Source: Thermoanaerobaculia bacterium (lineage in GTDB: Bacteria > Acidobacteriota > Thermoanaerobaculia > Multivoradales > Multivoraceae). Taken from it: a stretch of DNA of 64,000 nt. The translations under genes and the position numbers were made by a program. The notes beneath the pieces are model-generated. The model was not told the origin of the DNA. It worked only from the letters and a program-made list of their open reading frames with translations, and ran no database searches. The stretch covers positions 36,032-100,031 of the forward strand of contig DATKBT010000052.1 of assembly GCA_035546295.1 (NCBI GenBank), in the 5' to 3' direction. How positions within the stretch are numbered: the first letter of the stretch is position 1; each line of letters starts with the position of its first letter. Of this stretch, positions 21,135-64,000 are shown one piece after another.

Positions 21135-21585
21135 CGGCAGGGATCCTTCCGGCTTCGAGATGCTCCCGCTCGTCGAGAGCCGAGCTGGAGGGAGCGTTGG
21201 AGCGCGACGGTGCGAACCCGAGCGCGTTCCGGTGCTGGCCGTTCGGCCAGTTGCGGGATGGGCAGTGTACGGGGAGGGTGGAGGCCAGTTCAAGGCGGCC
21301 GCCCCGTCGGCGCCGGCCTCCGTTTCTCGACGGAAGGCCGTCTTGCTCGCGAGTCCACCCGTCGCTATCGTAGCGCGACTGTCCGCTTGCCGGTTGCGAT
21401 CGGCAGCGATCCGACCTGCGATCGTCGGCGCCGAGCGCGCAGCGCGCTGAAAGGCGGCCGCCGTCCCGCCTGAGTCGACGAGTCCAGCGGAAGCTCACAG
21501 AATGGTCAAGGTCCGATCAGGTCGCTCCAGATGAGCTGGAATCCAGGGTTGAGCCGAGTCGGCCCGAACCCGCCAGGTTGACTCG

Positions 21586-22206
21586 ATGCAAGGAATCTCC
21601 AAGCTCTGGCGGCGCTTGCGCTATGGCGAGCCGGTGGTCGTGATCTCGGGCCTGCCGCGCTCGGGCACGTCGATGGCCATGAAGATGCTCGAGGCCGGCG
21701 GCCTGCGGCTGGTCAGCGACGGCCAGCGCGAGGCCGACGTGGACAACCCGAAGGGCTACTACGAGGACGAGCGGGTCAAGGGTCTCGAGCGCTCGAGCGA
21801 CCGCGCCTGGGTCCGCGATGCGCGGGGCAAGGGGATCAAGGTCATCTCCCGCCTGCTGCGATCCCTGCCGGCCGAGAACTTCTACCAGGTGGTCCTGATG
21901 CGCCGCGACCTCACCGAGGTGCTGGCCTCGCAGGCCAAGATGCTCGAGCGACGCGGCGAGGACGGGGGTTCGGACGACGAGCGCATGCGCAAGGTCCTCG
22001 AGAAGGACCTCTGGCAGGCGACCTATCACCTGAAGCGGGCGCCCAACTTCGAGTGGCTCGAGCTCCAGTACACCGAGGTCCTGGCGGATCCCGAGGGGCA
22101 GGCCCGGCGGATGGCCGCCTTCCTCGACTGCGCGCTCGACGTCGAGAAGATGGCGACCGTGGTCGATCCGGACCTGTATCGCAACCGGGCCGTCGCCGAG
22201 GCCTAG
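21586..22206 (+). CDS. Sulfotransferase family protein
   Basis: 5-prime-PSB loop VVVISGLPRSGTSMAMKML and 3-prime-PB region RLLRSLP. 206 aa. Confidence 0.7.
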   Translation: MQGISKLWRRLRYGEPVVVISGLPRSGTSMAMKMLEAGGLRLVSDGQREADVDNPKGYYEDERVKGLERSSDRAWVRDARGKGIKVISRLLRSLPAENFYQVVLMRRDLTEVLASQAKMLERRGEDGGSDDERMRKVLEKDLWQATYHLKRAPNFEWLELQYTEVLADPEGQARRMAAFLDCALDVEKMATVVDPDLYRNRAVAEA

Positions 22207-22476
22207 CGGGCTCGTGGTGATCACCACTCCCCAAACGAGCCGCGAGATCGCAGCGCGGTCATACCACGACCCCGCTAGCCCATGTTCCCCGCCCAAGCGC
22301 CGCAAGCGGCGCGGGCTCAGGTCGACTAGGCCTGAAGCCGCTGATTCCAGATCGTTTGGGTGCGGCTTGATCGAACATTGACCGTTTGTGAGCCTTGGTC
22401 TCGCGCTTGCGCGAGGCCAATGACCGCCGCCTGCCGCAGGCAGGCAAGAACTTTCCGCTGGCCTAGTCGACCTAGG
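22202..22476 (-). repeat. Copy A of a structured intergenic repeat (minus orientation), with a 60-nt hairpin insertion
   Basis: Reverse complement aligns at ~85-90% identity to 56911..57131. Begins on the sulfotransferase stop codon and ends 8 nt before the next start. Confidence 0.6.
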
Positions 22477-36726: not shown

Positions 36727-36856
36727 GGCCCGCCTGCGGGCTTGCGGCGCACCGAGTGATCGGCTGCCGGGCTCGTGGTATGACCACGCCGCGCGCTCTC
36801 GCGGCTCGTTTGGAGAGTGGTGACCGCCACGAGCCCGCGGGGCTTCGTCTCGCGAC
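36727..36856 (+). repeat. Copy B (truncated, 3-prime half only) of the structured intergenic repeat
   Basis: Aligns to the 3-prime ~120 nt of 56911..57131 (gcttgcggcgc...ggctcgtggtatgacc...gagtggtgacc(g/a)ccacgagcccgc). Confidence 0.5.
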
Positions 36857-36905: not shown

Positions 36906-38515
36906 GTGAGAGAACACCCTTCGAGGAAGAGACCCGGGCTCCGATTCGCGGCCCAGGCACTGATGGTCGGGCTGGCGCTCGGCGCCTGTGCCCGGTCCAC
37001 GCCTCCGGTCGGGAGCAGCGCGGAGCTCGATCTCGTGGTCGACGAGTACCTCGCTCGCGGCTCGGCGCGCAGCGACTGGAGCTGGGATTCCCTGCTGGCG
37101 GGGGAGTTGCCCGATCTCTCACCGGAGCGGTTCGAGCACGGAATCGAGGAGCGCCGCCGGCTCCTCGAGCGCGCTCGCTCGATCGCGTCCGAGGACCTCA
37201 CGCCGCCCGAGCGCACCGATCGCAGAGCCTTGATCGCCCTCCTGGAGGGCGCCATCCACGACGCCGAGCGGGAGCGGCGATGGGAGAGCGAGCCTTCGCT
37301 CTACCTCCCTGCCGGCAGGGTCGCGCCAGCCTTCGCCGTCCGCCCGAGCGCTCGACCCGGGAGCGATCTTCCAGGCGCGATCGACGATCGAGAGCCTGCG
37401 CTCCCGCCTCGCCGGCCTCGCCGATCCGGAGCTCGTCGGAGCCACCGAGCGTGCCCTGGTCGAGCTCGAGGAGCATCTGAGGTTTCTCGAGGAGGACCTC
37501 CTGCCCCGCTCGGACGGGTGAGTGGGCCATCGGCAAGGAGCACTACGACTTCACCCTGCAGCACCGCTGGCTGCTGGACGCCGACGCGGACGAGATCCTC
37601 GCCGTCGGGCGAGAGGTGTTCGAGCGCACGGTCGCCGAGGCGCAGGAGGTGGCGCAGCGCATCCAGCCCGGCAGCGACTGGGTCACGGTCTACGAGTCGC
37701 TCAAGGACGACCATCCGCCGGCCGACGGACTGAAGGCCGCCTACCAGGAGCAGATGGACGCTGCGAAGCAGTTCCTGATCGAGCACCGCGTGGTGACCCT
37801 GCCGGAGGGAGAAGAGGTCGTCACCGTGGATACTCCTCCCGCGATGCGTCGCTCCTCGCCCTACGGCACCTTCGACTCGGTCTACCCCGACGACGACGAG
37901 CTCCTGGGGAGGCTGGTGCTGACGCCGATCGAGGACTGGCTCACGCCTGAGCAGCGGCGCGAGCGCCTGCGTGCCCACCACCGTTCGTGGATCCCCCTGA
38001 TCGCCGTCCACGAGGCCTACCCCGGTCACCACGTGCACGCGCTCGAGACCTACCAGAACCCGCGCAAGCGCCACCACGTCCGCGAGGCGATCTTCTCCAA
38101 AGGCTGGGGGCTCTACACCGAGCAGCTGATGTGGGATCTCGGCTTCCTGCACGGCGACGACGTCGAGCTGACGAAGCTCCGCAATCGTCTCTGGAGGGCG
38201 GCGCGCGTGATCCTCGACGTGAGCCTCCACACCGGCAGGATGACCTTCGACGAGGCCGTCGACTTTCTGGTCGAGCGAGTGCGCTTCGACCGCCTCGCGG
38301 CCGAGCTCGAGGTCGGCATCTACGTCGAACGCCCCACCTACGTCCTCGGCTATCTCATCGGCATGCTCGAGATCGAGAAGATGTGCCGCGAGTGGGTCGA
38401 GAAGAACGGCGAGCCCGCCGAGCCTCGCCAGCTCTACGACGCCCTGCTGAGAATCGGATCCCTGCCGCCGGCGCTGGTTCGCGCCGAGCTGTTGGGGGAG
38501 GAGCCGCCGCCGTAG
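36906..38515 (+). pseudogene. DUF885 family lipoprotein gene disrupted by two +1 frameshifts (~37340 and ~37520)
   Basis: Lipobox LALGAC start in frame 0, middle segment in frame 1 ending RSDG-stop at 37519-37521, C-terminal 300 aa in frame 2 (ORF 37616..38515) with HEAYPGHH zinc motif. Joined sequence RSDG/EWAIGKEHYDF is contiguous in intact DUF885 proteins. Confidence 0.6.
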
Positions 38516-53447: not shown

Positions 53448-53479
53448 TTCACGTCAGAACCCGTTCACGTCAGAACCCG
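53448..53479. repeat. Two perfect tandem 16-nt direct repeats TTCACGTCAGAACCCG, 14 nt upstream of the UnbV-like gene start
   Basis: Read directly; candidate regulator-binding direct repeats. Confidence 0.35.
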
Positions 53480-55454: not shown

Positions 55455-56371
55455 GCGATTCCAAGCCCCGCAAGCCCCGCGATCCGCGTACCGGGTTGCG
55501 CACCTCGGCCACGCTGGCCACCGTGCTCACCCTCCTCGGGCACACCGTCCTCGGGTTCGAGCAGCCGGCCTCGATGATCCTGGTGGCCCTGGTCACCGGC
55601 TACTCGAGCGCGATCTTCTTCGAGTGGCTCGACGCCCGCGTCAACGGCCGGCAGCCGGGCTATCGGGGCAAGGGCTGGAAGGGAGTGGTGGACTACCTGC
55701 TCTCCGCGCACATGACCTCGATCACCATGAGCTTCCTGATCTACACCAACAGTCGCATGGGGGTCATGGCCTTCGCGGTGGCGGCGGCCATTGCCTCGAA
55801 GTACCTGTTCCGGGTCGAGGTCGACGGCAAGCTGCAGCACTTCATGAACCCGTCGAACTTCGGCATCGCGCTGGCGATCGTGATGTTCCCATGGATCGCG
55901 CCCATCCCGTACGTGTTCACCGAGCACGTCACGGGCTTCGTCGACGTCCTGGTGCCGGCGGTGATCTTCCTGCTCGGATTCCGGTTGAACTACCTGTTCA
56001 CCCGTCGCATCCCGCTCATCCTGAGCTGGCTCGGCGCCTACGTCTTCCAGGCCTTTGCTCGCTGGATCCTGCTCGACCACCGCTTCGAGGCGGCAGTGGC
56101 GTCGATGACGGGCGCGGCCTTCGTGCTCTTCAGCTTCTACATGATCACCGACCCCAGGACCTCGCCGTCGAGCCAGAAGGGGCAGATCGCGTTCGGGACC
56201 TCGATCGGACTGGTCTACGGTGTCCTGATCGCCTTCCAGCTCACGTTCACCGCGTTCTTCGCGGTCACCGTCGTCGCTGGAGCACGCGGAGCCCTACTCT
56301 ACGTCTCGGCCTGGCGGCGGCGCCGTGCGCTGGTGCCGCATCCGGCGCCGCTCGCGGTCCCCGAGAGCTGA
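55451..56371 (+). CDS. UnbU-like polytopic membrane protein (partner of UnbV/ASPIC proteins)
   Basis: 306 aa, ~8 TM helices, 4-nt overlap with the UnbV-like gene. Confidence 0.6.
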   Translation: MSDSKPRKPRDPRTGLRTSATLATVLTLLGHTVLGFEQPASMILVALVTGYSSAIFFEWLDARVNGRQPGYRGKGWKGVVDYLLSAHMTSITMSFLIYTNSRMGVMAFAVAAAIASKYLFRVEVDGKLQHFMNPSNFGIALAIVMFPWIAPIPYVFTEHVTGFVDVLVPAVIFLLGFRLNYLFTRRIPLILSWLGAYVFQAFARWILLDHRFEAAVASMTGAAFVLFSFYMITDPRTSPSSQKGQIAFGTSIGLVYGVLIAFQLTFTAFFAVTVVAGARGALLYVSAWRRRRALVPHPAPLAVPES

Positions 56372-56444
56372 CCGTCTCGGGCTCTTTGCGGATTGCGAGG
56401 AGCCGCGGTCGGCTCCGCGAGCGATCGCGCGGTCGAGCCGCCCG

Positions 56445-56720
56445 ATGACCGCGGCCGACCCCTGGCGCGTCCTCTTCACCCGGCAGGCCGCGCGGGACGC
56501 GAAGAAGCTGGCGGCGGGCGGGCTGAAACCGAAGGCCGAGCTCCTGCTCGAGATCCTCCATCGAGATCGGTTCCAGACGCCGCCGAGATTCGAGAAGCTC
56601 TGCGGCGACCTCGCGGGCGCCTGCTCCCGCCGGATCAACGTGCAGCACCGGCTGGTCTACCAGGTGCTCGAAGAGCAGCGGGTGGTCAAGGTCCTCAGGA
56701 TGTGGACCCACTACGAATAG
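56445..56720 (+). CDS. YoeB/Txe-family type II toxin (mRNA interferase), no adjacent antitoxin gene
   Basis: SRRINVQHRLVYQVLEEQRVVKVLRMWTHYE C-terminal catalytic signature; 91 aa from the internal ATG of ORF 56325..56720. Confidence 0.7.
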   Translation: MTAADPWRVLFTRQAARDAKKLAAGGLKPKAELLLEILHRDRFQTPPRFEKLCGDLAGACSRRINVQHRLVYQVLEEQRVVKVLRMWTHYE

Positions 56721-56910
56721 GGGGGGCCTCTCGCCGGCCCGCGTGCACGCTCACGGTCTCCCTCCCGTTGGGGCCACCAGGCGACCGGATCGGCGATCGA
56801 AGTCGGGTGCGAAGGAGTGGCCAGTGCGGTCGCTGTCGAGACGGAGGTCGGTACCGTTCGCGGCAACCGAGAAGACGACACCCGTGCGGAGGATTTCGAG
56901 CGGGCCCAAT

Positions 56911-57131
56911 CTAGGTCGACTAGGCCAGCGGGAAGCTCACAAAACGGTCAAAGTTCGATCAAGCAGCACCTAAACGACGTGGATCAGCGGTTGTCGGGCC
57001 TAGTCGACCTGAGCCCGCGCTGCTTGCGGCGCTTGGGCGGGAAACATGAGCTAGCGGCTCGTGGTATGACCGCGCTGCGATCTCGCGCTCGCTGGGGAGT
57101 GGTGACCACCACGAGCCCGCTAGGTCTCGGC
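56911..57131 (+). repeat. Copy C (reference copy) of the ~220-nt structured intergenic repeat
   Basis: 5-prime CTAGGTCGACTAGG pairs with internal CCTAGTCGACCTAG (14 bp). GCGCTGC-TTG-GCGGCGC hairpin. GCTAGCGGCTCGTGG pairs with CCACGAGCCCGCTAG (15 bp). Palindrome GTGGTGACCACCAC. Aligns to copies at 22202..22476 (reverse) and 36727..36856. Confidence 0.6.
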
Positions 57132-57306
57132 TGCGGGAGGGAGAATCCGATGCGGCCATCGGCACGCAGCGCAGGCGACATTCCGAGGAGCGCAACGATC
57201 CGATCACGCGAGCCATCCAGAGAGACCCGGGGACCTGGGCCCCTTGTCGTCCGACCTGGCTGTAGTAGAGGACGGCTCCATCGAGCGACCACGCGGGCGA
57301 GCCGGA

Positions 57307-60060: not shown

Positions 60061-60782
60061 CTCGAAGGCACCACGTCCATCATCGCTCGAACCTTGGCCG
60101 TATACGCCCCCTGAATCGGCTCGAGGATGCGGCCGCGGGTCGTCTGGTCGCGCAGCCGGTAGATTACGCTACGGAGGCACTCAGGACTTGCCTCTCGTCT
60201 GTGGTCGAGGGGCCTCTGCGCGCATCGTGATCAGCCCGCGAGCCCTGGGAACGGTCTCGACCCGGACGTCTTCGGTGCCGTGCCAGCAGAGCACATCCAT
60301 CCTCCAGTCCTCTCGCTCATCCGCCATCGCGGTGGCGGTGCGGTGATGCGCTCGAGCTCAGACCTTTAGGTGGATCGCTCGAGCGATCCCAGTTGCGATG
60401 GCGTCCAAGCGCCGGCAACAAAGTCGTCGAGCTCGCGCGTCAGAGCCCAGTCGTCGCCACCGTCTGCAGGAACGCCGGCGTTCGCCTGTTTCTCGCCGCC
60501 CCCAATGAGAAGGATCGGCTTGCAATGGCGGTACTGCTCGGTCACAAGCTCGCGAGCTTGGCCCACGGGGCGGCTTGGCCATGCTCTCTCCTTGACCTGA
60601 GACGCGCCGGTGGCGTCTCAGGCGCTCCGCAGGAGTCCTGCCGAGCCGCCACCGGGCGGGTTGAGGAGTGTGGCGGCCATGCCGCCGCACGCCGATCGCT
60701 CGCGCCGGCAGCCACTCGAAGGCTGGTCGGCGCTAGTCGACCAGTCGCGCTCGCTATTCGGGGTTGCGGGCGGCCGATCGAA

Positions 60783-61322
60783 CTAGCGACCGTCGTTGTC
60801 GGAGTCGCCCGGCACGAGCTTCTCGACGCGGTTCCAGGCGTCCCGCGTCGCCGCCTTCGCCTGGTCCCACGAAGACTCGCTCTGCCGGCTCGGCCAACCC
60901 TTGGCCAGATCGGTCTCGACCTCGCTCCACTCGCGCCCCGGGTGCGCGGCCCGCGACTCCCAGCCGTAGCGATACGCTTCCTGGTAGTCCGTGTAGGGCC
61001 GAGTGCGATCGACATAGGGCCGTGAGCGGTAGTTCGTCTCCCAGTAGGTGTTCTCCAGCGTGGGGTTCACGGCCTCGCCGACGCCGTGTCCCGCGGCGCC
61101 GCCGGCCACGCCACCGATCGCCGCCCCGATCACGGCGCCCACCGGGCCGCCGACCACCGCACCCGCCGCCGCGCCGGCAACCGCGCCGCCGGTGGCGCCG
61201 ATCCCCGTCCCGACCGGGTGCGAGCCATGCGCGCCGGTGAGCGGGTCGGCATTGACCTCTTTGGCGATTTCCTTCTCGACGTCCTCTTGGGTTTCCTTCT
61301 CGAGGATCGCGGTGTCTTTCAT
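60783..61322 (-). CDS. Hypothetical protein with central glycine-zipper segment and Tyr/Trp-rich C-terminus
   Basis: [41 protein letters not shown], then [29 protein letters not shown]. Confidence 0.45.
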
Positions 61323-61844: not shown

Positions 61845-64000
61845 ATGACCCTTGGAAGATTCTTGCCGATTGCGTGGGCGGTCCTCGGGATCGCCGGGAG
61901 CGCGCTGGCATCAGAGGCCCCGGATACGGTTTCGCCCGGAGACGCTTCGAAGCTGGTGCGCATTGGGGACGCCTGCCCCACGTTCAACTGGAGCGCGATG
62001 GAGGGGGCGCGGTCGTACGAGCTGGTCGTCTACAGGATCGGAGACGGGAAGGTCGAAGACCGCGCGGTCCTGACCAAGATCCTTCCGGGCGGCGCGCTGG
62101 GGTGGACGCCGCCGCTCGACGATTGCCTCGAGCCGGGAGGCCGATACGCCTGGAGCGTACGCGCCACGGGGCGCGGGGTGGGTCAGAGTGCCGTGTCGGA
62201 GTGGTCGGCTCTCCGCCTTTTCCAGGTGGCCTCGGCACCCACGACGGACGAGTTCGAGGCCGCTCTGGAGACGGTGCGCGCATACCTCGAGTTTCGGGGC
62301 GAGCGGCTCGCGGCGCCCGACGACCTCGGGGCGCGGTCGGAAGGCGGCTCGGCGAGAAGCGAGCGCCGGGAGCCCGCTCGGGGTGGCGTGGCATCGACCA
62401 AGCTCAGCGTCGACGGCGGGGTCGCCGCGACGTCGTTCGCGGGAGACGGCGCGGCCATCACCGGTCTCGACCCGGCGAACCTCGCGGCTGGCACGGCGGG
62501 CATCGACGTCTCCGGCACCGCCTCGAACGTGACCGGCACGGTCGCGATCGCCCACGGTGGAACGGGCGCCACGGATGCGGCAGGCGCGCGTGCCGCCCTG
62601 GGGGTGGCCGCCGGGCCCCATACGATGAACAGCACCTGCGACGGCGCGGCCTGCGACGGCACGAGCTTCGCCAACGTCACGGCCGTCGCGGGAGATTCGG
62701 CGACCGGATTCTTCTCGGAGGGGAAGATCGAAGAGGCGCGGATCGCCGACGAGATCGCGCGAGACGGCGAGCTGAACGCCATCGCGCTCTGTGCCGGTCT
62801 GTTTCCTGCGAAGGGACGGAGGTATCTCGACTTGGGAGACGGTACCGTCCTCGACTGCGGCTCGAAGCTCCTCTGGCTGAAGAACGCGAGCTGTTCCGAG
62901 CTGGCGGGGACGGATCCCGAGGGCCGCGGCAACTACTCCGTGGCGCGTGACGCCGCGGCGGCGCTCGCGGACGGCGTTTGCGGCCTGACCGACGGCTCGT
63001 CGGCGGGGGACTGGACCCTGCCGTCGGCCGAGCAGCTCTGCAGTGCCTGGTCCGGCTCGGATCTGACGCCGTGCCCGGAGGCCGCCGCCGCCGACAGCCT
63101 GATCGACTCCTCGGTCACCGGCAGGGACGTGCCGAAGGTGGCGAACACCCTGGGCGACGGAGCCTGGTCGGAAGGAGATCCGTTCCTCGGGGTCCAGCCG
63201 ACGAGGTACTGGTCCGGGACCGCCGACATCACGTCGGGCTGGTACGGAGACCTCGAAGTCGGAAGCGTGCGGAGCACGACGAACAGCGCGGACGACTATT
63301 ACGTCTGGCCGGTTCGAAACGTCCCGTTTTCGAGTGGTGTCGACGCGGAGGACATCGTGGGGGTGGTGCCCATCGAGAAGGGCGGCACCGGGGCCAGCGA
63401 TGCCGTTTCCGCCCGTTTCAACCTGGGAGTGGTGTCCGGCCCGCACACCGTCGACACCACATGCAACGGAGCGGCCTGCGACGGCACGAGCTTCTCCAAC
63501 GTGATCGCCGCAGCGGGCGATTCGGCCACCGGGTTCTTCGCCGCGGGCCGGGTCGAAGAGGCCCGGATCGCGGAGGAGATCACCCGCGACGCCGAGCTCC
63601 TGGGAAGTAGCCCGGCGGCGGCCCAGCTCCTTCTCTGCGCGACCCGGAACCGTGGCGGCTGGCGCTACTGGGACCTGGGCGACGGGACGGTTCTCGACTG
63701 CAACACGGGGACGATCTGGCTGAAGGATGCGGGCTGTCTCGGAACCGGGACCTGGAGCTCTACGGCCGTCGCCGGTTCCGTCCAAGAGAAAGTGGCCGGC
63801 CTCAACGGCGGGACGGACTTCGGCTGCCAGGACTACAAGGCTGGAACCTACACGGACTGGCGGCTGCCGGAGATCTCGGATATCTGCAGCGCCGGGGCTG
63901 TCGAGCAACAGTGTCCAGCTGCGAACGCTCCGGACAGCCTGATCGACAGCTCGGTGGGAATTCCCAAGGTGGTGAACTCGACAGGCACAGGGACCTGGAC
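61845..64000 (+). CDS. Large secreted repeat protein with phage-tail-fibre-like repeats and DUF1566 (Lcl C-terminal-like) modules; 3-prime partial, continues beyond window
   Basis: ATG at 61845 with GGAGGTG 7 nt upstream. Frame 0 is open to the window end, so it is not in the ORF track. Signal peptide MTLGRFLPIAWAVLGIAGSALA. Two ~300-aa repeats each containing (H/K)GGTGA(T/S)DA...AR..LGV and W(T/R)LPS/E...C motifs. Confidence 0.65.
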   Translation, partial: MTLGRFLPIAWAVLGIAGSALASEAPDTVSPGDASKLVRIGDACPTFNWSAMEGARSYELVVYRIGDGKVEDRAVLTKILPGGALGWTPPLDDCLEPGGRYAWSVRATGRGVGQSAVSEWSALRLFQVASAPTTDEFEAALETVRAYLEFRGERLAAPDDLGARSEGGSARSERREPARGGVASTKLSVDGGVAATSFAGDGAAITGLDPANLAAGTAGIDVSGTASNVTGTVAIAHGGTGATDAAGARAALGVAAGPHTMNSTCDGAACDGTSFANVTAVAGDSATGFFSEGKIEEARIADEIARDGELNAIALCAGLFPAKGRRYLDLGDGTVLDCGSKLLWLKNASCSELAGTDPEGRGNYSVARDAAAALADGVCGLTDGSSAGDWTLPSAEQLCSAWSGSDLTPCPEAAAADSLIDSSVTGRDVPKVANTLGDGAWSEGDPFLGVQPTRYWSGTADITSGWYGDLEVGSVRSTTNSADDYYVWPVRNVPFSSGVDAEDIVGVVPIEKGGTGASDAVSARFNLGVVSGPHTVDTTCNGAACDGTSFSNVIAAAGDSATGFFAAGRVEEARIAEEITRDAELLGSSPAAAQLLLCATRNRGGWRYWDLGDGTVLDCNTGTIWLKDAGCLGTGTWSSTAVAGSVQEKVAGLNGGTDFGCQDYKAGTYTDWRLPEISDICSAGAVEQQCPAANAPDSLIDSSVGIPKVVNSTGTGTW

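Follow-up and report, generated by a model that had tools for sequence, protein, structure and literature searches.

The intergenic repeat that occurs several times in the window (by which we mean the whole 64,000-nt stretch of DNA analysed here) is almost certainly a non-autonomous mobile element that targets the tetranucleotide CTAG. As far as Rfam, sequence collections and a literature search show, the family has not been described before, and it is best filed as a variant of the PATE/REPIN-type small mobile repeats. To our knowledge, hardly anything has been described of small mobile repeats in Acidobacteriota. A family of this kind would fragment metagenome assemblies, create spurious ORFs and repeatedly land on stop codons, and in the present one the signs of a guide-type reading of the cleavage/target tetranucleotide are unusually clear.

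Insertion at CTAG

The phosphodiesterase-sulfotransferase-hydrolase locus that carries copy B of the repeat (Table 1) was found to be syntenic in four other sequences: L049 and L050, whose sulfotransferase is 94% identical to that of the window, L051 (85%) and L053 (83%). In L049 and L050 the site of copy B is empty and reads ..tcCTAGgagtggtcttgg.., and the corresponding DNA of the window reads ..gcCTAG[269 nt]CTAGgaggagtcttgg... On a longer stretch of the same junction (..cacctcCTAGgagtggtcttggag.. in L049/L050, where the two genes lie only 8 nt apart), the window has ..gaggcCTAG[269-nt element]CTAGgaggagtcttggaag.., so that an empty ..tcCTAGgag.. is matched by a filled ..CTAG[element]CTAGgag... 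Copy B was inserted precisely at a CTAG, the last three letters of which form the stop codon of the sulfotransferase gene. Mobility, which the preliminary description had proposed for the repeat, is borne out by this pair of a filled and an empty site, and the more distant orthologous loci of copy B are likewise empty.

Comparison of the left flanks of full copies revealed a CTAG directly before nearly all of them, and the flanks were otherwise unrelated to each other. Copy D is also absent at its place in L049, though the site there is not CTAG. The tetranucleotide itself is strongly avoided in the window (26 observed vs 85-177 expected), and 10 of these 26 CTAGs are found inside copies A and B or beside them.

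Copies of the element in the window

The three copies named in the preliminary description (A, B and C in Table 1) are present, essentially at the coordinates given there. Its total of three has to be raised to four, since a further, degenerate copy (copy D) was found with a profile built from 14 full copies; it is located in the divergent intergenic region of the phosphodiesterase and sulfotransferase genes. Three of the four copies are on the plus strand and one is on the minus strand. Copies A and B are 88-97% identical in blocks of 32-64 nt, and copy C is 79-87% identical to copy B, with the match limited to the 3' module. An invariant 13-mer, TCGTGGTATGACC, occurs three times in the window, where 0.73 occurrences would be expected by chance. 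On the profile, copy C covers positions 110-215 and copy D positions 4-109, which makes them complementary halves. Copy C had been described as a 3' half only; it does consist of modules 2 and 3, but it is not a mere truncation, as it carries a variant module 2 in common with L040. The spurious ORF peptides that had been reported over the repeat are genuine by-products of it.

The surroundings of these copies, with a G+C content of 70% across the window, are ordinary chromosomal genes, including those for ectoine synthesis, an ABC transporter, ribosomal protein S1 and RF3, as well as the sulfotransferase gene followed by an alpha/beta hydrolase gene; the genes of the window include no transposase. 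For one flanking protein, the nearest named relatives come from Thermoanaerobaculia MAGs (Acidobacteriota), and an exact database look-up of the window sulfotransferase gave no record.

Table 1 Coordinates of the element copies and their parts in the window
Feature	Position	Strand	Remarks
Copy A, full	56915-57123	+	209 nt
Copy A, left-flank CTAG	56911-56914	+	Putative target tetranucleotide, directly 3' of which the element would have inserted; empty-site comparison made for copy B
Copy A, module alpha	56915-57010	+	Long hairpin GTCGACTAGGCC ... GGCCTAGTCGAC; conserved 5' interior CCAGCGGGAAGCTCACAAAACGGTCAAAGTTCGATCAAG; 3' interior subfamily-specific
Copy A, module 2	57011-57049	+	Small hairpin GAGCCCGC-stem-GCTTGGGCGGG, then AAACATGA; helices 1-2
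Copy A, module 3	57050-57123	+	Stem of 16-17 bp, GCTAGCGG(G)CTCGTGGT / ACCACGAGCCCGCTAG; loops TATGACC and TGGGGAGTGGTGAC; variable apical hairpin
Copy A, terminal CTAG (the element's own)	57120-57123	+	3' end of module 3
Copy B, full	22203-22471	-	269 nt; module 3 22203-22279, module 2 22280-22319, module alpha 22320-22471
Copy B, terminal CTAG	22203-22206	-	Now provides the TAG stop of the sulfotransferase gene 21586-22206
Copy B, optional double hairpin (~58 nt) inside module alpha	22390-22447	-	Also in L032, L043 and L008; partly in L014
Copy B, left-flank CTAG (element orientation)	22472-22475	-	Equals the single CTAG of the empty site
Copy C	~36727-36847	+	Modules 2 and 3 only, diverged, both CTAG ends lost; covariance-model score 75 bits
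Copy D (new)	21472-21573	+	Degenerate module alpha, continuing for ~11 nt into module 2; nhmmer E=1e-15

Anatomy of the element

The anatomy was derived from an alignment of about 45 copies. The element is ~210-270 nt long (209-269 nt), has no ORF that is conserved across lineages and encodes no protein. It is composed of module alpha (~95 nt), module 2 (~40 nt) and module 3 (~75 nt), and a full copy is preceded by one CTAG and ends in another. Inside the consensus stem of module 3, 16-17 bp in length (GCTAGCGGGCTCGTGGT / ACCACGAGCCCGCTAGC), there are two conserved loops, TATGACC and TGGGGAGTGGTGAC, together with an inner helix of 5 bp (ACCGC/GUGGU) and an apical hairpin that varies. Among the stems claimed previously, the first corresponds to AGGTCGACTAGGCC / GGCCTAGTCGACCT, and the second is confirmed, copy A having a single bulge in it. 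No helix is formed in the consensus by the third one (GTGGTGACCACCAC), and its bases pair with the 5' arm and ACCGC instead. Optional blocks are inserted at fixed places. One such block, of ~75 nt, lies between modules 2 and 3 in L008, L013a, L036 and L044 and is present twice in L017.

The element is a fusion of two units, module alpha on the one hand and modules 2 and 3 on the other, each of which also occurs alone, because copies C and D are complementary halves. In L024 an intact CTAG is found also between module alpha and module 2; in more than 20 copies at different loci the junction of the two modules is fused and the CTAG there is lost. Module alpha and module 3 each have perfect inverted ends of 12-16 bp that are directly flanked by CTAG. 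The termini of the whole element are not inverted repeats: when the first 40 nt of copy A were aligned with the reverse complement of its last 40 nt, the local alignment score was 12, compared with 10.7 +/- 2.1 for shuffled sequences, and 296 of 1000 shuffles scored as well. Wherever two elements are adjacent (L013, L037 and L014), they are arranged head to tail (3/3). The same metagenome also contains an unrelated repeat, here called alt1, with textbook MITE anatomy (CTAG, then CCTGGACTATTCATGA...TCATGAATAGTCCAGG, then CTAG), and in L011 this CTAG-flanked repeat directly follows the terminal CTAG of the element.

Origin of the terminal tetranucleotide

The terminal tetranucleotide of the element pairs with an internal one at the 5' foot of the module-3 stem. 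The internal and terminal tetranucleotides are CTAG and CTAG in 23 copies, GTAG and CTAC in nine copies at different loci, and CTCG and CGAG in one. A left flank could be scored for five of the GTAG:CTAC copies, and it was CTAG in four of them (L010, L014, L044 and L045) and CTAC in the fifth (L022). A base specific to a subfamily could not be passed on by a duplication generated anew with every insertion. The right-hand CTAG is therefore carried along by the element rather than duplicated from the target, which is represented by the left CTAG. A small doubt stays with two copies that have the same variant on both sides (CTAC/CTAC in L022 and TTAG/TTAG in the degenerate L010b), since this would also be expected of a target duplication. 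On the other hand, the CTAC that flanks L022 is the complement of the internal tetranucleotide of its module alpha, GTAG, which in this single case is what a guide-type reading of the target predicts.

These results bear directly on an alternative in which a CTAG-targeting DDE transposase (IS5, IS701 or IS630-like) mobilises the repeat by cut and paste, as a classical MITE or as several nested ones, with the flanking CTAG or its central TA as target duplication and with module alpha and module 3 as separate palindromic MITEs inserted side by side. IS630 and IS5-group elements prefer CTAG. Such an origin would account for a CTAG on both sides of the element and a single CTAG in the empty site, for the perfect inverted ends of module alpha and module 3 beside CTAG, for the existence of solo module alpha (copy D) and solo modules 2-3 copies, and for the matching variants around L022 and L010b; alt1 shows exactly the anatomy that it predicts. 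However, the composite has moved as one unit, as seen from the fused junction of the more than 20 copies, and its ends are not inverted. The CTAC terminus, moreover, is inherited in nine copies together with the internal GTAG, with CTAG as the left flank in four of the five that could be scored, and the compensatory changes in interior stems and the wobble bias on one strand (see below) would be left without explanation. We therefore consider a DDE-type MITE unlikely. In the preliminary description the repeat was called MITE-like, and this holds as far as it is non-coding, multi-copy and mobile; it is not a classical MITE, as its termini are not inverted and its right CTAG is inherited.

Structure and strand asymmetry

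In the consensus structure of modules 2-3, based on 33 distinct sequences, 97% of cells were paired, compared with 36-51% when the partners were slid against each other. Seven pairs had changed on both sides, a number that none of 500 shuffles reached, and three compensatory pairs are located in helix 2. G:T pairs were seen in 68 cells of 15 columns and A:C in three cells of three columns; it should be noted that such cell counts overstate the number of independent events, many copies being related by descent, and that the direction of the bias is consistent across columns. The stems of module alpha showed the same tendency (13 G:T vs 2 A:C). One helix position was G:U in 29 copies and A:U in three. 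The stem of module alpha differs by lineage yet stays paired, being GGTCGAC/GTCGACC in the window, GAGCGAC/GTCGCTC in L002 and another stem of 18 bp in L003 and L047; in addition, L047 has GGGATCGTGG/CCACGATCCC in place of the GGGCTCGTGG/CCACGAGCCC of others. Only the top strand (as written) is kept foldable, because G:T wobbles far outnumber A:C. Folding of one strand suggests that the element moves as single-stranded DNA, unlike a classical MITE.

Could modules 2-3 instead be a functional structured RNA, protein-binding or guide-RNA-like, with selection acting on the transcript and with the copies as RNA genes or as transposon ends that bear an RNA? The TATGACC and TGGGGAGTGGTGAC loops and the stem architecture are shared by the Thermoanaerobaculia-like lineage of the window, one Thermoanaerobaculia MAG and MAGs of the Holophagae type, and the stems covary. 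The wobbles on one strand and the near-fixed G:U that became A:U in three copies fit such a function, as do the optional hairpins at fixed permissive places, which are also found in many structured RNAs. Against it, a scan of copies A and B and their surroundings gave no sigma-70-like promoter or intrinsic terminator, the copies occur in both orientations relative to neighbouring genes, and no Rfam match was obtained at E<=10. The element is also dispensable, given that relatives with 83-85% identical flanking proteins lack it over ~20 kb. A functional RNA thus seems to us distinctly unlikely. As regards the structured RNA put forward in the preliminary description, the compensatory changes and the one-strand wobble agree with it; the promoter and terminator are absent, both orientations occur, and single-stranded DNA would give the same signal.

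Proposed mechanism

For the mobile element that we favor, we tentatively propose mobilisation in trans via a single-stranded intermediate, like that of the IS200/IS605-derived PATEs or REPINs; we regard it as a plausible route, short of a probable one. Peel-and-paste transposition of the Y1/HUH type is proposed because of the combination of features described above, namely insertion 3' of a fixed tetranucleotide, no inverted ends or true duplication, hairpins at both ends, a terminal tetranucleotide paired to an internal one, structure on one strand and head-to-tail neighbors, which are typical of this kind of transposition as known from IS608 (PMC3201880, PMC5934647). The element would be a folded single strand of DNA when moving. 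A trans-acting enzyme of the HUH/Y1 type (IS200/IS605 TnpA or RAYT-like) would cut after the CTAG of the left flank and after the terminal CTAG of the element itself, and the element would then be joined to the 3' side of a different CTAG. As in IS608, recognition of the cleavage tetranucleotides would depend on pairing with internal 'guide' tetranucleotides. Many copies land on gene ends because CTAG is rare in this genome of 70% G+C and a fair share of its occurrences are C+TAG stops; as CTAG is palindromic, the stop codon is restored after insertion.

No Y1, RAYT or TnpB gene was present among the genes of the window, and a crude motif screen of ~330 kb of DNA for Y1 and TnpB detected none. 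The mobilising enzyme, a candidate Y1/HUH protein, is one that we purely infer. Several observations do not sit easily with the mechanism. The end hairpins of IS608 are alike, small and subterminal and have single-stranded cleavage sites, whereas those of the element are mutually unrelated and long, with the CTAGs in the feet of the stems. Module alpha taken alone resembles a classical MITE, copy D is located at a non-CTAG site, and the G:T asymmetry would be equally expected from selection on a transcript.

A further reading, which we hold to be improbable, is that modules 2-3 are the scaffold of an RNA-guided system (omega/reRNA-like, as at the right end of TnpB/IscB-type IS200/IS605 elements) or that the element is a self-guided, retargetable single-strand transposon. 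The GTAG:CTAC and CTCG:CGAG subfamilies and L022 hint that the target may be reset by the internal tetranucleotide. For a scaffold, there would be dozens of gene-less copies with transcripts running into flanking DNA. An RNA scaffold in the 3' unit would, if confirmed, make the finding a good deal more important, and if either guide reading were true, the family would offer a naturally occurring, high-copy case of targeting guided by nucleic acid in Acidobacteriota.

Comparison with known systems

The PATEs of Haloquadratum have no terminal inverted repeats, no target duplication and near-terminal palindromes, and they are too short for a transposase (PMC3119063). The present element is like them in being too small to code for a transposase, in having palindromes at or near both ends with no inverted ends and no true duplication, in its insertion beside a short conserved oligonucleotide, and in being high-copy, heterogeneous and invaded by other small repeats (PMC3119063). 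It differs in that its end palindromes bear no relation to one another and its hairpins are terminal and long (~95 nt for module alpha), whereas those of PATEs are short and subterminal. Moreover, its target and terminal tetranucleotides are both CTAG and lie within stem feet, its host belongs to Acidobacteriota, and no cognate IS200/IS605 transposon was found. If a Y1/HUH enzyme were confirmed, the family would be a bacterial counterpart of the haloarchaeal PATEs, simple and with a possibly re-programmable 4-nt target.

In IS608, guide tetranucleotides located 5' of the hairpin foot recognise the sites of cleavage (PMC3201880), and retargeting has been reported (PMC5934647). The element shares with IS608 and the IS200/IS605 family insertion 3' of a tetranucleotide, strand specificity, and a right-foot tetranucleotide that pairs with the terminal one (PMC3201880, PMC5934647). 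The contacts of IS608 are partly non-canonical and its sites are TTAC and TCAA, 10-19 nt from the hairpins; in the element, by contrast, all guide pairs are of the Watson-Crick type and continue into the stem without a gap, and its enzyme was not found.

The likeness to the GTAG-tagged REP/REPIN sequences (PMC3733652) consists of a tag at the foot, a subfamily with GTAG...CTAC like that of a REP dimer, G:T pairs, donation of TAG stops, mosaic arrays and a suspected Y1/HUH enzyme. However, the element measures ~210-270 nt with three or more hairpins, compared with 20-40 nt for a REP, and its majority tag is CTAG and not GTAG. Like the element, Correia, RUP, BOX and ERIC repeats are small, non-coding, intergenic, highly structured and multi-copy; its modularity recalls BOX (boxA-boxB(n)-boxC), and its TA/CTAG-type target is similar to that of IS630-related MITEs. 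From these families and from classical MITEs the element differs by the lack of terminal inverted repeats, a right CTAG that is not duplicated and the conservation of stems on one strand.

Position relative to genes

The copies are intergenic and enriched beside the 3' ends of genes, and 9 of 64 scored element ends, which may be either end of the element, overlap the TAG stop of a flanking gene. This distribution, which recalls the GTAG-tagged REPs (PMC3733652), and the mosaic modular arrays, which resemble BIMEs, would also fit a regulatory hairpin of the REP/BIME kind that is under host selection, serving to terminate transcription, to stabilise mRNA or as a gyrase site, and that spread mainly by recombination. 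We consider this very unlikely, because the precise insertion at CTAG, within a spacer of only 8 nt in a close relative, points to transposition, both copy C and copy D are upstream of gene starts, and the unit is 5-10 times as long as a REP. A regulatory role of this sort may exist as a secondary effect. The preliminary description had placed all copies at gene 3' ends, which is only partly so. Copy B abuts a stop codon, yet it is also upstream of the next gene; copy A is between convergent genes, but 190 and ~400 nt away from them; and for copies C and D the statement does not apply.

Some other classes of element were discarded by inspection or on the Rfam result: for hammerhead and twister ribozymes, retrons, integron attC sites and the bridge RNA of IS110, the core motifs are missing, neither an RT nor a recombinase gene lies next to the element, and CTAG is all that the target flanks have in common. 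A SINE-like retroelement, with a conserved 3' structure and 5'-truncated copies, was also rejected, since the 3'-truncated copy D exists and the 5' truncations are an ascertainment effect of a search pattern aimed at the 3' module.

Distribution of the family

The statement in the preliminary description that the repeat belongs to no recognised family agrees with our searches, and copies also occur outside the window. No Rfam family matched anywhere in the window at gathering thresholds, and at E<=10 the region 56850-57200 gave only chance-level partial matches to guanidine-III and a thermometer (E 1.6 and 4.8, respectively). A scan of plasmid and phage sequences by BLAST in distant mode produced no match, a scan of viral contigs produced 0 matches, and a literature search with the conserved sequences returned only chance primer matches. 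In the supplement of PMC3733652, no acidobacterial TIR sequences were available for comparison.

Among 185,579 species genomes scanned, true homologs were identified in L002, a Thermoanaerobaculia MAG chromosome, and L003, a Holophagae MAG; the other three of the five genome-scan matches (L001, L004 and L005) were chance matches inside coding sequence. The metagenome scan yielded 41 loci, which come from three related samples and in many cases lie at contig ends; several MAGs carry copies as well, so that the repeat clearly extends beyond the window. With a covariance model (R1) built on modules 2 and 3, 50 copies were detected in 215 kb of metagenome and MAG DNA, and in the window only the three known copies that bear module 3. 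Across ~20 kb of syntenic DNA of relatives (with an 83-85% identical flanking protein) the element was absent, save for one very diverged relative of it in L051. The family is therefore, on the basis of the MAG and metagenome copies and of the relatives without the element, widespread in at least two acidobacterial classes and expanded only in certain lineages.

Finally, a reverse-strand peptide of the repeat was used as a profile against 5.8 billion proteins to trace copies via their spurious ORFs. Two matches only were obtained, through which L047, a copy in a MAG, and L048, a module 3 on its own, were retrieved. The module alpha of L047 is of the L003 type and its flanks are different, both copies being on Holophagae-type MAG contigs.

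CTAG scarcity and CTAG-bounded repeats

The tetranucleotide CTAG, next to which the mobile element inserts, was strongly under-represented in the whole window, with 26 occurrences observed versus an expectation ranging from 85 (first-order Markov model) to 177 (base composition). Copies A and B of the element and their flanks account for ten of these 26, and at least two of the remaining ones are stop codons (29083 and 60783). A stretch of ~600 nt without a called high-GC3 ORF, flanked by two minus-strand genes, contains a small hairpin, CTGGTCG-GCGCTAGT-CGACCAG, around the CTAG at 60733.

The metagenome that carries the element also contains a second, unrelated repeat family (alt1), whose ends form a perfect 16-bp inverted repeat with a CTAG flanking each side, CTAG/CCTGGACTATTCATGA...TCATGAATAGTCCAGG/CTAG. 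The element was often directly adjoined by alt1. Smaller CTAG-bounded hairpins were observed as well. They follow the element in L015, for instance, and precede it in L016.

Coordinates of the features described (window positions unless a locus is named)
Feature	Location	Strand
Copy D (module alpha only)	21472-21573	+
Apparently split DUF885 gene	36963-38515	+
14-nt direct repeat (two copies)	53450-53479	+
YoeB/ParE-like toxin gene	56325-56720	+
Stretch without called high-GC3 ORF	60168-60783	
74% identical blocks	62540-62773 and 63365-63598; also 62829/63672, 63071/63911	
CTAG-bounded intergenic stretch (~350 nt)	L051 15553-15908	
alt1	L006 1036-1226; L010 ~17; L011 4060; L012 1192; L018 288; L027 2458	

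Degenerate copy and diverged relative

A degenerate fourth copy of the element, copy D, is located in a divergent intergenic region between a phosphodiesterase gene and a sulfotransferase gene. It was absent from the orthologous place in the syntenic locus L049, where the site is non-CTAG. In L051, another syntenic locus, an intergenic stretch with CTAG at both boundaries holds a highly diverged module 3 relative (GTGGCATGACCGCG...GGGGAGCGATGACCAC); in L053, the orthologous spacer measures only 140 nt.

Neighboring genes and other repeats

Downstream of copy C, a DUF885 gene is apparently split into two overlapping frames: the N-terminal portion of the Pfam model is matched by 36963-37733, and model positions 203-531 by 37481-38515. 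The cause is either a frameshift, which would make the gene a pseudogene, or an error in sequencing. Copy A is closely preceded by a YoeB/ParE-like toxin gene, and toxin-antitoxin genes were also found near copies elsewhere (PIN/VapB in L047 and PemK in L002, both from metagenome-assembled genomes); this proximity is probably a coincidence.

Two other repeats were observed in the window. The 14-nt CACGTCAGAACCCG, present twice with a period of 16 nt, sits 14 nt upstream of the ATG (53493) of an FG-GAP/ASPIC protein gene and may be a regulator binding site. Near the 3' end, the 74% identical blocks, spaced by ~825-843 nt, look like tandem paralogous genes.
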